From IMG/VR virus record IMGVR_UViG_3300017832_000054, positions 1 to 42,755 of that record: 42,755 nt of DNA; one strand, written 5' to 3'. The DNA comes from a virus (Duplodnaviria; Caudoviricetes). This document shows, one piece after another, positions 15,625-39,668 of this stretch. Position numbers and translations under genes: made by a program. The notes under the pieces are model-generated. The model had not been told where the DNA came from. It did no database searches and saw only the letters and a list, made by a program, of their open reading frames with translations. Numbering within the stretch: the first letter of the stretch is position 1; every line of letters starts with the position of its first letter.

Positions 15625-15999
15625 ATGACCCACGAACTGAAAATATGGCCGGAGTATTTTCAAGCTGTTTGGGACGGCCGTAAAACATTTGAGATACGTA
15701 AAAAAGATCGCGATTACCAAGTTGGGGATTACCTAAAGTTGTTGGAGTTTGATCCAGATAAGCAGGATTTTACGGGAAGCGGTCTTCTGGTGAGAGTGAC
15801 GTACATCTTGGACGACCCGGCATTTGTAAAAGATGGGTTTGTTGTGATGGGGATTCAAAAAATGAGTGATGTTTTTTGCGAAAGCAGGTCAAAGATATTT
15901 AGGCAAGCGTTAAGCGAAATAGTGGAGCTTTTGGAAGAAGACTACTACGAATATTGGGATAAATGCGTTGAGATAGCCAAGGATGCATTGAAATACTAA
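15625..15999 (+). CDS. DUF3850 / ASCH-PUA-like protein
   Basis: [43 protein letters not shown]. Confidence 0.85.
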
Positions 16000-16025
16000 G
16001 ACACATTCGACCAATGATGTGAAAT
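15998..16025. repeat. dif/Xer-like site A: AAGACACATTC-GACCAA-TGATGTGAAAT
   Basis: CACAT-N10-ATGTG inverted repeat overlapping the upstream stop codon; related to sites B, C and D. Confidence 0.6.
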
Positions 16026-16041
16026 AACAGGGGGTATCACA

Positions 16042-16341
16042 ATGGATAAATTTGAATCGTTAGGCTTTACTGCAGTTGTAACGAATGACAAGTTGAGGAT
16101 TGAAATTCCAATTAAAAATTTGGTTCAAGGGTTTGAGGCAAGCCCAAACAACTACCGTGATGCAACAGTAAAACGTGGATACAGAAAAGATTTTGCAAAG
16201 TACGTTGCTAAGAGATTGGTATGCGGCAGTGATCCAGATACAGGCGATAGTCCGATTATGGAAGCAATTGAAAGTGTTTTTGAAGAGTTGTTTGAATGTG
16301 CAGAGGATTTTATTAAGTATCCAGACGATGAGGATTATTGA
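16042..16341 (+). CDS. Hypothetical protein lying exactly between sites A and B
   Basis: RBS AGGGGGT; AT-rich 99-aa ORF. Confidence 0.8.
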   Translation: MDKFESLGFTAVVTNDKLRIEIPIKNLVQGFEASPNNYRDATVKRGYRKDFAKYVAKRLVCGSDPDTGDSPIMEAIESVFEELFECAEDFIKYPDDEDY

Positions 16342-16367
16342 TGAACATTCCGTAGATAATGCGTTAG
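16340..16367. repeat. dif/Xer-like site B: GATGAACATTC-CGTAGA-TAATGCGTTAG
   Basis: Shares ACATTC-N5-ATRATGYG with site A and the same offset to the upstream stop codon. Confidence 0.6.
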
Positions 16368-16381
16368 AAAGGAGAATTTTA

Positions 16382-16726
16382 ATGTCAGTAAAGATCGACG
16401 GTAAACTCGTTTTTACAAAAGAAATGGCAAATGTATTTCAAGCAAAAGTGATTGAGTGCCCTGATTGCGGATTCTGTTTTGATATTACTCACGAATTAGA
16501 TGGGAATGACGGATTGTATTCATGTCCAAGTTGCAACGAAGACAACTTACTTACGGAAATTTATCACTTAAAAAGAAAAGATGAGATTTACAAAGAACGA
16601 CTTGAGCGAGTCAAAGCAATTGTCGATGTTATGGAGCAAAGCGGAGATATCGATCTGACGACGCTGACACAACTTAGACTGGCTCTCGAGTGGTTACCGG
16701 AAAGAGATGGAGTTGAATCATTATGA
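16382..16726 (+). CDS. Zn-ribbon hypothetical protein
   Basis: RBS AAAGGAG before ATG 16382; CPDC..CPSC. Confidence 0.75.
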   Translation: MSVKIDGKLVFTKEMANVFQAKVIECPDCGFCFDITHELDGNDGLYSCPSCNEDNLLTEIYHLKRKDEIYKERLERVKAIVDVMEQSGDIDLTTLTQLRLALEWLPERDGVESL

Positions 16727-36865: not shown

Positions 36866-36866
36866 T

Positions 36867-38630
36867 ATGGGTGCATTCGGTGGTTTGATACTGACAAACC
36901 AAGGGAGAGCTTTGCAAGCGAAGGCACAGGCCGGCGCGCAGCTCGTTTATACAAAAATCAAAATAGGCGATGGGAATTTGGGTGGTCAGTCTATCCCAAC
37001 ATTGACGAATCTGATCAGTCCAAAGAAGACGATTGATATTCGAAAGATTGAAGTTCGTCCAGGTGGGGTTGCTGTAATCGGGACGATGCTTTCAAATTCC
37101 GATGTCACGGAAGGTTTTTATTTCCGTGAGATAGGGGTGTTTGCGCAAGATCCGGACATCGGGGAAATCTTGTATTGCTACGGCAATGCTGGCGCGAACG
37201 CGGAGTATATTCCTCCAGGCGGCGGTCCTGATGTCATCGAGAAATATATTGATATCCGGACGCTGACCGGGAACGCGCCGAACGTGAGTGCAGTAATTGA
37301 CGATTCACTGGTTTATGCCCTGAAACGGGATTTGGAAGAACTTGACGTCCGAATTCAAGATGCTAAGACAACGGCTGACACGGCCTTGGCTACCGCACAA
37401 TCCGCCACTCAAACTGCGCAGCAGGCAAACCAAAAAGCGGATCAAAACACGTCTGATCTTGTTGCGCATTTGAATGATGATGCGAAAGCACATAAAATTG
37501 AAAATATAACAGGGTTGAAAGAGGAACTAGAGCAGCGTGGAGTCAACGTAAAATCTCTCGGTGCAGTTGGGGATGGGGTTGTTGACGATACCGCTGTGAT
37601 CCAAAGCGCACTTGATAACTTTGGAACCGTAATTTTGCCGCCTGGGGTATATAAAGTCTCAGGGATACGTTTGAAAACAGGCAATCGGCTGATTGGAATG
37701 GACGAGCAGAATACAGTTTTGGTCCCGAGCACGAATGACGTTACGTTAGTGACATTGTCAAATGCGCGAGAATGCTCGATTGAAAATCTAAAAATTGATG
37801 GATATGGAATGACAGGTTGCGTTGGTCTGTATGTAGCAAACCAAAGTACCAATGTATCAGTTAAAAATGTGTGGTTTGATAGTTTAAACACAGCGGTAAG
37901 AACAAACGACTCGTATTTTTTGTTGTATGACACTTGCCGAATCATGGGATGTGCTCTTGGATTCGATTTACAGTCAGCTTCAAATTCAGTGACACTATTA
38001 AATTGTTCGATGATTTGTACAGTCAAAGCGTTACAGTGGATTAATAGCAGTGGCCTCAGTTTGATTGGGAACACCTTTGAAAATAAGACAGAAATTGATA
38101 TGTTCAATTGCTTCGGAGCAAACCTTAGCGGGAACTATTTTGAAGATGATGGAAACACAAACGCTTATCATTTAAAATTAGGAACAGGAAGTGGGTTATC
38201 AGCTTCAGGAATATCAATAAAAGGCAATCAATTTAATCATGGTGCGACACATGGTATTATCTTCATGGCTTGCCAAGGTGTAACGATTGATGGCAACAAC
38301 TTTAGAACAAACTCCTTTGCATTCGGGTGGTATCAATACGATAATTCTCCGAAACGCGCAGTCAGCATTGGGAATAACAGTTATGACATCGGTGGGCTTG
38401 GGTTCGACGCTAGCAAAATCGTAGAATTTCAAGGTTCGGATTTTGATTCGCTTAACTGCAATTTTAATGATAACCAAGTCCAGCCGTTACTATTTTTCAA
38501 ACAAAAGGAGCCGCAGTCCGTGACAATCGGAAATGAGCAATGTGTTTTGTATTGGGATGGAACCTCTTTAAAAATTAAGGCGAAAGGAGCAAGCGGAGAA
38601 ATTAAAACAGCCACTATTGCTACGCCTTAA
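36867..38630 (+). CDS. Tail fibre/tailspike: conserved baseplate-attachment N-terminus plus pectate-lyase-like beta-helix (putative polysaccharide depolymerase)
   Basis: LTNQGRALQAK..FREIGVFAQDPDIGEILYCY, coiled coil, then VNVKSLGAVGDGVVDDTAVIQSALD..ILPPGVYKVS and an Asn-rich beta-helix. Confidence 0.88.
   Translation: MGAFGGLILTNQGRALQAKAQAGAQLVYTKIKIGDGNLGGQSIPTLTNLISPKKTIDIRKIEVRPGGVAVIGTMLSNSDVTEGFYFREIGVFAQDPDIGEILYCYGNAGANAEYIPPGGGPDVIEKYIDIRTLTGNAPNVSAVIDDSLVYALKRDLEELDVRIQDAKTTADTALATAQSATQTAQQANQKADQNTSDLVAHLNDDAKAHKIENITGLKEELEQRGVNVKSLGAVGDGVVDDTAVIQSALDNFGTVILPPGVYKVSGIRLKTGNRLIGMDEQNTVLVPSTNDVTLVTLSNARECSIENLKIDGYGMTGCVGLYVANQSTNVSVKNVWFDSLNTAVRTNDSYFLLYDTCRIMGCALGFDLQSASNSVTLLNCSMICTVKALQWINSSGLSLIGNTFENKTEIDMFNCFGANLSGNYFEDDGNTNAYHLKLGTGSGLSASGISIKGNQFNHGATHGIIFMACQGVTIDGNNFRTNSFAFGWYQYDNSPKRAVSIGNNSYDIGGLGFDASKIVEFQGSDFDSLNCNFNDNQVQPLLFFKQKEPQSVTIGNEQCVLYWDGTSLKIKAKGASGEIKTATIATP
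37461..37488. repeat. dif/Xer-like site C inside the tail fibre gene: GTTGCGCATTT-GAATGA-TGATGCGAAAG
   Basis: CGCAT-N10-ATGCG inverted repeat near the junction of the conserved shaft and the variable tip; reads through as VAHLNDDAK. Confidence 0.6.
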
Positions 38631-38634
38631 ACGA

Positions 38635-38643
38635 TGATATAAT
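38635..38643 (+). promoter_or_regulatory. Extended -10 SigA promoter for the FkbM gene
   Basis: Perfect TGnTATAAT just after the tailspike stop codon; no clear -35. Confidence 0.65.
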
Positions 38644-38674
38644 TTTGAAAAAATACAAAAGGCGGTTGGTGATA

Positions 38675-39652
38675 GTGAGTATTTCATCCCTTATCCGCGA
38701 TCAGAAATTATTATTTTATCGCTTGATTCTCGAAGCATTTCAAAAGAAGAAAATCGAAAATTATGTCTTAAAAGCATATGCAGAGCCGGATTGCGAGGCA
38801 CATCAAATCATTAAAGACCATGCGCGGAAATGGTATGGATTGACAGAGTCAAACAATGTCAAATGGTCAGAAGCATTTATGTTGACCGTATTTCGAGCTC
38901 AATTAAAATTGTTTGGCAAAGGCGTGGATACTGATCTTGGGCTCAGCAAAATCGGTTTTGACGATTTGGTGATTAAGTCAACGTCTACTGATGCCAATTC
39001 GAGTAGAGTTTTTATTATGGGGTTTGACGATAATTTAACAATCTTTCAAATTTACAAAGAACAAGCAGAAAAAGGAACGATTGCGGTGGATGTTGGAGCG
39101 AACATCGGCATACACAGCTTAGTTTTATCTCGGTGTGTTGGTGAAAAAGGGAGAGTTTACGCATACGAACCACGGGCTTCGATGTGTGCGAGGATCAAAG
39201 AAAATCTAGAGACAAACTACATCAGCAACGTATTTATAAGAAAAGTTGCTGTAGGCGATCAAAATGGAAAAATACCATTTAACGAGCATGAGAAAGATTT
39301 CAACATCGGGCTCGGTTCATACGATCCAACGTCCGATAAATACGTCGATGTGGTCAAGTTAGACGAGGATTTGAAAGAAGTAGAAGGGAAAATCAGTCTT
39401 GTCAAAATCGATGTTGAGGGGTATGAATTACAAGTTATCAAGGGTATGCGAGATTTATTAATTCGGCACAAACCGAACTTGGTTTTGGAATATAACCCTG
39501 ACAAATGGGATTTTGAAGCACTTAGGAAAGAAATACCATACACAGTGAAAATTTATAAAATACCTACAACATTTAGAGATAAATCAATACTGATAAAAAA
39601 AGGTTACGAACTTAAAAAGTCAACTAACATTTTAATTACTCCTACACGATAG
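38675..39652 (+). CDS. FkbM-family SAM-dependent methyltransferase (moron) with an extra N-terminal region
   Basis: AVDVGANIGIHS, VYAYEP, VVKLDE, LVKIDVEGYELQVIKG and KPNLVLEY; AT-rich; start taken as GTG 38675 after AAGGCGG. Confidence 0.9.
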   Translation: MSISSLIRDQKLLFYRLILEAFQKKKIENYVLKAYAEPDCEAHQIIKDHARKWYGLTESNNVKWSEAFMLTVFRAQLKLFGKGVDTDLGLSKIGFDDLVIKSTSTDANSSRVFIMGFDDNLTIFQIYKEQAEKGTIAVDVGANIGIHSLVLSRCVGEKGRVYAYEPRASMCARIKENLETNYISNVFIRKVAVGDQNGKIPFNEHEKDFNIGLGSYDPTSDKYVDVVKLDEDLKEVEGKISLVKIDVEGYELQVIKGMRDLLIRHKPNLVLEYNPDKWDFEALRKEIPYTVKIYKIPTTFRDKSILIKKGYELKKSTNILITPTR

Positions 39653-39668
39653 GATCAAAATGTGTAAC
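39641..39668. repeat. dif/Xer-like site D: CCTACACGATA-GGATCA-AAATGTGTAAC
   Basis: TACAC..GTGTA symmetry with the same spacing as A-C; contains the FkbM stop codon; sits at the end of the AT-rich block. Confidence 0.5.

Follow-up and report, generated by a model that had tools for sequence, protein, structure and literature searches.

Four 28-bp sites, A to D, in the phage genome analysed here (42,755 nucleotides; 'the window') are likely to be the points at which one Xer-like tyrosine recombinase crosses DNA over, probably a 334-aa enzyme that is encoded by related phages and would act in trans. From the sequence comparisons we put the probability of this reading at roughly 55%. They are members of a near-symmetric 11-6-11 site family that marks where fibre tips and small genes have been exchanged among related Bacillota phages, and the 6-bp spacer would be the address for pairing. 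C would recombine only with the C site of another phage and D only with its D site, so that two crossovers would replace the tip and downstream genes, keeping the reading frame and not deleting the module. A and B would permit a like replacement of one early gene. The enzyme would be provided by another phage, and the window's own copies are presumed to be still functional.

Four 28-bp sites in the window

The sites and the features next to them are as follows.

15998..16025, + strand: site A, 11-6-11, spacer GACCAA
16042..16341, + strand: gene for a 99-aa protein of unknown function (PHROG 8560), lying between A and B, 37.7% GC
16340..16367, + strand: site B, spacer CGTAGA, weak on its own
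36867..37460, + strand: constant N-terminal part of the fibre, tail-collar domain and helical linker, 49.5% GC
37461..37488, + strand: site C, spacer GAATGA, in frame, upstream joint of the tip module
37489..38630, + strand: variable tip, a predicted depolymerase/tailspike with a pectate-lyase-like beta-helix, 40.5% GC
38645..39652, + strand: gene for an FkbM-family methyltransferase, part of the module, 37% GC; start codon provisional
39641..39668, + strand: site D, spacer GGATCA, FkbM stop straddling the left arm/spacer boundary
39669..39698, + strand: terminator-like hairpin, directly 3' of site D and 5' of the holin gene

All four 28-mers reported in the sequence-only reading were found in place, with the 11-6-11 layout and partial dyad symmetry. 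As it had said, the first base of both A and B is the second base of the preceding stop codon (ORF ends at 15999 and 16341); A starts within the stop of a DUF3850/ASCH gene and ends ahead of a ribosome-binding site. C is indeed in frame, beginning 594 bases into the fibre gene (36867-38630) at codon 199 and translated as V-A-H-L-N-D-D-A-K, and D contains the FkbM stop (39650-39652). The reported likeness to Escherichia coli dif, whose sequence is printed in PMC3025954, was reproduced at 8/11 for the left arm of C and 9/11 for the right arm of A. The proposed common core CRCAT-N10-ATGYG does not hold for all four: it is present in A and C only, B having RCAT-N10-ATGYG and D lacking the CAT.

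Several of these details recur in relatives. The register of A is that of early sites in three phages (G040, G046 and G051), and the register of D is common to three others (L194, L174 and L186), while hairpins resembling that at 39669..39698 follow D-type sites. The spacer of B recurs at a stop/ribosome-binding-site junction in L254, and that of D in L275, 382 bp upstream of its 334-aa recombinase gene. Counting against the main reading, the C and D spacers are each two bases away from the modal GGCTGA and GGACGA, respectively, and the A and C spacers do not occur elsewhere among the relatives' sites compared.

Scanning the window with matrices built from other phages, as had been suggested, placed A and C at the top and left B and D weak individually. 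A matrix of 19 fibre sites, all from other phages, gave scores of 17.1 for C, 15.0 for A, 6.2 for the next best position, 4.0 for B and -0.4 for D. A second matrix, of 12 downstream sites from other phages with the spacer included, ranked A, D, C and B as the top four over both strands (0.02, 0.13, 0.19 and 1.48 expected per shuffled window, respectively), a test that is partly circular because the 12 sites were chosen by a pattern written after D was known. With a combined matrix of the arms only, B and D were individually non-significant (∼5 expected per shuffled window). A ranked first under all five matrix settings tried, and second with the 19 fibre sites. No further C-type site was found in the window by these scans, and one tip gene was found among the 62 ORFs scanned.

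Change-point intervals in GC content take in C (36946-37492) and cover D (39636-39752). No breakpoint was seen at the window's own A to D, no sufficiently close relative having been found; two records, L335 and L337, have the same sequence as the window, and L336 was left out of the comparisons. Locus searches with single proteins gave one locus for the fibre N-terminus, none for the 99-aa A-B gene and none for FkbM, for which no viral relative was found. The one close relative of the tip, P0133 (57%), has a sequence that starts 3' of the junction and is hence uninformative on it.

Exchange points in related phages

Relatives have a C-type site in frame in the fibre gene and a D-type site closing the tip module. 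The C-type site is conserved at the DNA level, with synonymous positions fixed. A scan for HxADYVK[HQ] that was degenerate at every synonymous position returned 33 loci, and in the 17 non-redundant fibre-like matches Val was GTG in 15 (background 0.20, P = 4e-9), Lys was AAG in 14 (background 0.29) and Tyr was TAT in all 17 (background 0.71); GTG was used in none of 7 coding matches outside fibres. The distribution is patchy, which counts against the main reading: C-like sites were found in 14 of 149 fibre homologues, all in one reading frame, and D-like sites in 8. Fixed simple patterns were mostly flat over these 149 loci, CGCATTT-N4-GA alone being enriched; a strict D-type pattern was found in 0/5 genomes, and six annotated phages had no site with these arms.

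Between relatives, identity ends past the C spacer and is regained from the D spacer. Up to C, L219 and L230 share 96.6% identity; they give no alignment from C to D and are 92% identical from the D spacer onward; L256 and L257 are 99.8% identical starting at the D site. Alignment ends lay within 17 bp of a site centre in 22 of 129 cases against 1.4 expected, a count made anew because duplicate contigs had inflated an earlier tally. Breakpoints took up 22 of 281 opportunities at sites, compared with 29 of 1928 at ordinary gene ends. The C-side breakpoints in this count all involve L225 or L230 and so represent few independent events. In eight pairs a shared tip (at least 70% nucleotide identity) is joined at C to shafts whose likeness does not exceed 36%, and seven of these pairs have zero tblastx similarity upstream of it. 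Unrelated modules carry a conforming half-site at each end, and non-coding D-type partner sites exist.

A minority of relatives have A/B-type sites at junctions between early genes, such sites being present at 7/98 early and 0/104 structural junctions (Fisher P = 0.006) and absent from 29 of the 34 early regions examined. In one swap example, 98% identity between G051 and L365 begins at the first spacer base and the preceding slot holds different genes. L254 has four sites at junctions of small genes, all within 1.1 kb. The homologue of the A-B gene in L338 has two flanking sites (scores 14.5 and 14.4); flank scores for the homologues in L253 and L254 are weak (at most 3.7). Thus, of the earlier proposal that such sites swap gene cassettes and receptor-binding tips, tip exchange is borne out in relatives, and early-gene exchange by a single example. 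Since each pair has two different spacers, the expected event is not the excision of A-B or C-D circles but two crossovers with the DNA of another phage.

Candidate recombinase and rival explanations

Many relatives carry just 3' of D a gene, lacking in the window, for a 334-aa XerA-like recombinase. The protein passes the NF040815 XerA model (240 versus 220 bits), falls below the XerC, XerD and IntI cut-offs, and retains R-K-H-R-H-Y. Over 73 loci selected by this gene alone, site density per 100 kb was 27.8 in the 500 bp upstream of the gene, with 0 within it and values no higher than 1.8 at distances beyond 5 kb. Counting against the main reading, no site reaches a score of 13 in 28 of the 73 loci, and of 10 whole phages that carry the recombinase, 4 lack sites in its vicinity. 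The recombinase is not a core host gene (9/39 genomes at E ≤ 1e-60, 3 of them close). A further point against the main reading is its absence from near-complete phages with sharp C/D pairs (a close match in 0/13 records not selected for it), for which supply in trans has to be assumed. The gene is missing from seven records at 94-100% completeness, and several of them retain intact site pairs.

No second tyrosine recombinase was found in the window, in agreement with the sequence-only reading: a PHROGs scan of 62 of the 254 ORFs of at least 50 aa gave none, and tblastn with the recombinases of three relatives, run against the full window, matched the phage's own integrase alone.

99..1442, - strand: own integrase, sole tyrosine recombinase found; 16-bp terminal repeat (possible att core)
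6169..7762, + strand: exonuclease and Sak4-like annealing protein, relevant to exchange by homologous recombination

The integrase was set aside as the enzyme for A to D, the possible att core being unlike them.

The sequence-only reading had named host CodV/RipX or another element. The arms of the phage sites are near-palindromic. At right-arm position 7, all four window sites and 86-89% of phage sites have G, as against 0/19 host dif-like sites with AT-rich spacers. With arms that are near-symmetric and differ from host dif, and a gene that adjoins D-type sites in many relatives, CodV/RipX is a less likely candidate than the 334-aa enzyme working in trans. That the sites are true crossover sites served by host Xer, either RipX alone on both arms or CodV/RipX, with the 334-aa gene a passenger or helper, is a minority possibility of perhaps one in five. 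The inner right arm TTATGT agrees with host dif, RipX can bind both Bsdif halves according to part of the text of PMC5357621, the gene is missing from the seven records noted above, and sites in two host genomes (L350 and L354) combine a dif-type left arm with G at position 7, which counts against the main reading. However, the host left-arm ending CCGATAA occurs in no phage site class, the left arms in the window share just 2-4 of 11 positions with B. subtilis dif (the host dif set being from related Bacillota), and the sites crowd just 5' of the 334-aa gene in loci selected by that gene alone. It is improbable that the sites are instead boundary motifs conserved for homologous or microhomology recombination, or regulator-binding palindromes, with no site-specific enzyme. 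Existing tip alleles of close phages would likewise be swapped by homologous exchange at any point of shared flanks, the right arm in L225 is poor, gene ends draw breakpoints in general, and the window encodes the Sak4-like and exonuclease proteins and, in the PHROGs scan, RusA. This would leave the dyad around a position-specific 6-bp spacer and the adjoining tyrosine recombinase unaccounted for; moreover, related tips join shafts without upstream similarity precisely at C, and the modules with conforming half-sites at both ends are unrelated.

A and B might form a separate early-gene system with another enzyme, or be relics, with C and D as in the main reading; we consider this rather remote. 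One such enzyme could be a ∼180-aa tyrosine recombinase that adjoins ArpU/sigma genes in many relatives. L253 and L254 have both its gene and a homologue of the A-B gene, early junction motifs with other arms occur in B. cereus-group and Brevibacillus phages, and B is weak alone, but A is the window's best match to matrices trained on tail sites, and early sites with these arms were found in 5/10 whole phages with the 334-aa gene against 1/9 without it, a small sample of related phages. Chance together with a protein motif, A-H-x-A-D-Y in fibre linkers, would explain why all 14 C-like matches share a frame and why B and D are non-significant on their arms alone. For the site family this very improbable explanation is contradicted by the fixed synonymous positions, the non-coding D-type partners and the breakpoints at spacers, and it could still apply to B alone.

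Relation to known systems and significance

Recombinase-mediated cassette exchange is a laboratory method with heterospecific lox or FRT sites, in which two co-oriented sites with incompatible spacers permit replacement without deletion; the phage sites would be its natural counterpart. The pdif modules of Acinetobacter plasmids, to which the sites had been compared, are a parallel in mechanism and not in membership. In the text available from PMC13141974, 11-6-11 sites that need identical or near-identical spacers flank modules, and one module is replaceable by two successive crossovers via a cointegrate; L219 and L230 likewise differ by a single replaced module with left and right spacers kept. 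However, pdif sites have distinct XerC and XerD arms in inverse orientation and are plasmid sites served by host XerCD (same text), whereas the phage arms are near-palindromic and unlike host dif, so no C/D (XerC/XerD) polarity can be given to them, one site is in frame in a virion gene, and the leading candidate enzyme is a single phage-borne recombinase.

In the Rin shufflon of Bifidobacterium prophages, as given in the portion of PMC6109161 available (which cites Min, Gin and Cin), the C-terminus of a receptor-binding protein is varied at an intragenic site; another site lies beyond the 3' end, and a XerD-like tyrosine recombinase is nearby. The arrangement of an intragenic site and a second site 3' of the module is shared. 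Rin, however, flips alternative alleles kept in the same genome, and its 11-bp sites are identical and asymmetric. Here there is a single tip with no alternatives in store, unlike in the Rin, Min and Gin shufflons; the two spacers differ, and exchange is from genome to genome. The window also lacks an adjacent recombinase, which relatives have after D. Archaeal XerA/dif, XerS/difSL and XerH/difH each pair one enzyme with a two-armed site, often adjoining its gene (PMC5357621, in part). Relatives resemble these in having a XerA-like enzyme with intact R-K-H-R-H-Y co-located with the sites, but those systems resolve chromosome dimers at one site, and the phage sites are several and differently addressed. 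For Bacillus thuringiensis, XerCD has been proposed to exchange a host-specificity domain within Cry toxin genes (PMC13730063, in part), likewise a site-specific intragenic exchange in Bacillus; in that text the basis is a pangenome association with XerCD-family genes, in a non-phage setting without paired addressed sites. A literature search, supplements aside, found no description of a system like the present one, and the available portions of two multi-integrase phage papers (PMC13245101 and PMC9703825) do not describe these sites. The 334-aa protein scores ∼120 bits against a TIGR02249 cut-off of 265, so it is not of the integron IntI family.

The usual explanations for mosaicism at phage tail-fibre tips and accessory genes are inversion switches and recombination, whether homologous or illegitimate. 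Exchange points at defined spacers and a named candidate enzyme make the mechanism proposed here testable with one protein and 28-bp substrates. There is about an even chance, in our judgement, that temperate phages of Bacilli and Clostridia, including borrowers like this one, share a natural cassette-exchange network of spacer-addressed 28-bp joints worked by a phage-borne XerA-like enzyme. The joints, some of them in the fibre frame, would serve to exchange receptor-binding tips between unrelated tails and to shuffle early accessory genes. If so, the second 'integrase' beside the tail genes of these prophages would have a role, the recurring fibre motif H-x-A-D-Y would be a translated DNA site, a natural set of mutually incompatible recombination sites would be added to those known, and these phages would have a built-in route to altered host range.

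The phage genome and its four sites

The window is the genome of a temperate, contractile-tailed phage, with genes in the order integrase (99–1442), replication, sigma-like regulator, head, tail, and then holin, amidase and a HigB-like module. The named protein relatives are mostly from Bacillota; Paenibacillus proteins are 73% identical to the fibre N-terminus and the sigma factor of Aeribacillus phage AP45 is 59% identical to the phage's own. A 16-bp direct repeat lies at the termini (1–16 and 42740–42755), and TTGGGGAC repeats close to both ends (78–95 and 42611–42630) may be integrase arm sites. 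The ParB-methyltransferase gene (17702–19096) aligns with a single PHROG as two successive in-frame segments, between which lies a stop codon whose last base is 17911. Past the lysis module, a HigB-like toxin gene is followed by an HTH/IrrE-peptidase gene (40994–42440).

The sequence-only reading had proposed four 28-bp sites, each of two 11-bp arms around a 6-bp spacer. Checking of the sequence and ORFs located all four, placed relative to the genes as claimed:

Site A, start 15998: with B, brackets one small early gene (99 aa)
Site B, start 16340: far side of the same gene
Site C, start 37461: in frame within the tail-fibre gene
Site D, start 39641: after the fibre tip and the FkbM gene

The core ascribed to them, CRCAT-N10-ATGYG, fits A and C exactly but not B and D, and the proposed matches to E. 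coli dif of 8/11 and 9/11 were borne out against the dif sequence in PMC3025954. With a position weight matrix of 19 fibre sites from other phages, C and A ranked top in the window, the next match being far lower. A matrix of 12 downstream sites, spacer included, gave A, D, C and B as the top four (a shuffled window would be expected to yield 0.02, 0.13, 0.19 and 1.48 such matches, respectively), a test that is partly circular since those 12 sites came from 13 loci picked by eye and were selected by a pattern drawn up once D was known. B and D are within chance when the arms alone are scored; C and D fall inside the window's GC change-point intervals. Together with the evidence on early genes given below, the placing of A in the site family is well supported and that of B moderately so.

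Sites C and D in the fibre module

Fibre homologues diverge past ∼155 residues, in many cases close to an H-x-A-D-Y motif. A viral scan for the C-type motif (at the start of the tip module), degenerate at all synonymous positions, gave 33 loci. By inspection of the ORFs, 24 were classed as fibre-like and 2 as non-coding, the remaining 7 being coding sequence of other kinds. Among 17 non-redundant fibre-like matches, the codons GTG (15/17; background 0.20), AAG (14/17; 0.29) and TAT (17/17; 0.71) predominate, and GTG is used in none of the 7 other coding matches. Because these codons are fixed in the fibre-like matches, site C is a DNA motif. Common ancestry may add to the fixation, but the shafts are unlike one another across these matches. 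One locus (L190) has a second fibre-like gene downstream with its own C-type site, +1607 from the first, and two GC-rich viral contigs carry a non-coding dif-like site (L173:5001 and L175:75).

A second site ends the tip module in 13 of the 16 fibre loci whose downstream end is shown. This D-type site often holds the last stop codon, with a hairpin next, as in the window, and D is the partner of C. The commonest spacers are GGCNGA (C-type) and GGACGA or GACNNA (D-type). Since the window's C and D spacers are each two bases off modal, they would represent either another address group or decay; its D spacer recurs in L275, beside the 334-aa recombinase described below. Tandem pairs of same-spacer sites occur in L191 (+1357 and +2058 from C), G046 (25861 and 26452), L306 and G051 (16913 and 17279), the arrangement that integration of a circular cassette at one site would leave.

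Exchange points in related phages

Alignment ends were counted in site-bearing loci, after 124 loci had been collapsed to 118. No more than 17 bp separated 22 of the 129 ends from the centre of a site, against 1.4 expected, with every C-side end involving L225 or L230. Taken per opportunity, ends fell at sites in 22 of 281 cases and at ordinary stops in 29 of 1928. L219 and L230 have in common the left arm and spacer of C, do not align between the sites, and have in common the D spacer and right arm, and identity between L256 and L257 is 99.8% from D onward, a pattern that matches the prediction of crossover inside the spacers. Related tips are joined to dissimilar shafts at C in eight pairs, seven of them lacking an upstream tblastx match, and homologous recombination does not readily explain such joins. 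The site family is a real, recurrent feature, and we consider it highly probable (about 0.85) that site-specific exchange occurs at it.

The A-B gene has 11 relatives (68–75% identity; source names Rossellomorea, Listeria and Ureibacillus). At three independent loci, its homologue lies between two strong sites in L338 but not in L253 or L254. L254 has four sites at neighbouring small-gene junctions, one with the exact B spacer (chance expectation 0.32 per fixed spacer). Across 34 related prophages, scores of at least 7 were obtained at 7/98 early junctions, confined to five phages, versus 0/104 structural junctions. One clean swap at an early-site spacer separates G051 from L365. A-D-type arms were not found in six annotated phages; the three B. 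cereus-group phages among them instead have a different two-armed motif, ACAAAA-N6-TTTT, at junctions. In these (phi4J1, phiS58 and TP21T; L341, L342 and L344), the motif lies between small genes of the dUTPase-RecU region, with several alignment breaks at or beside it, and Abouo and Jimmer1 have resembling motifs.

Candidate enzymes and proposed mechanism

The leading candidate for the enzyme is a phage-borne, XerA-like tyrosine recombinase of 334 aa, whose gene follows the fibre module in L179, L187, L100, L105 and others. It passes NF040815, fails the XerC, XerD and IntI models, and keeps its catalytic residues intact. In 73 non-redundant loci (out of 80) selected by this gene alone, sites are densest immediately before it (27.8 per 100 kb), and more than 5 kb away their density is no higher than 1.8; in 28 of these loci no site scores 13 or more. 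The gene is patchy across host genomes (9/39, three of them close), and was found neither in the window nor in 13 records chosen independently of it, among which both C and D are present in 6 of 9 fetched records (four include matrix-training sites). Both halves of Bsdif can be bound by RipX (PMC5357621), so the host Xer route may also serve the sites. Host dif of related Bacillota resembles GAGTCCGATAA TATATA TTATGTAAACT; the arms of the phage sites form a near-palindrome and carry G at position 7 of the right arm, a base found there in 0/19 host sites with AT-rich spacers, although L350 and L354 combine this G with a host-type left arm. A further tyrosine recombinase of ∼180 aa follows an ArpU/sigma-like gene in L253 (6795–7396) and L254 (8520–9302), and a two-armed site of its own lies beyond it. 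Many relatives carry this recombinase; the window does not.

No published description of such a system was found in a literature search whose reach excluded most subscription journals. Among known systems, pdif modules (PMC13141974) share the working of single-module replacement, although the phage sites fail their arm test, and the Rin shufflon (PMC6109161) targets the same kind of gene, whereas the window system is without stored alleles. Two Paenibacillus genomes have four dif-like sites within 48 kb (G001:C5:135–183 kb) and 18 kb (G002:C1:3.021–3.039 Mb), all with the right arm intact, which are possibly chromosomal dif modules.

For the phage sites, a four-subunit tyrosine recombinase would be likely to cut at the spacer edges. 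Unlike spacers within a pair (bases in common: A/B 1/6; C/D 4/6) would prevent deletion between its two sites, and two crossovers with a co-resident phage genome that carries matching sites would replace the module in frame.
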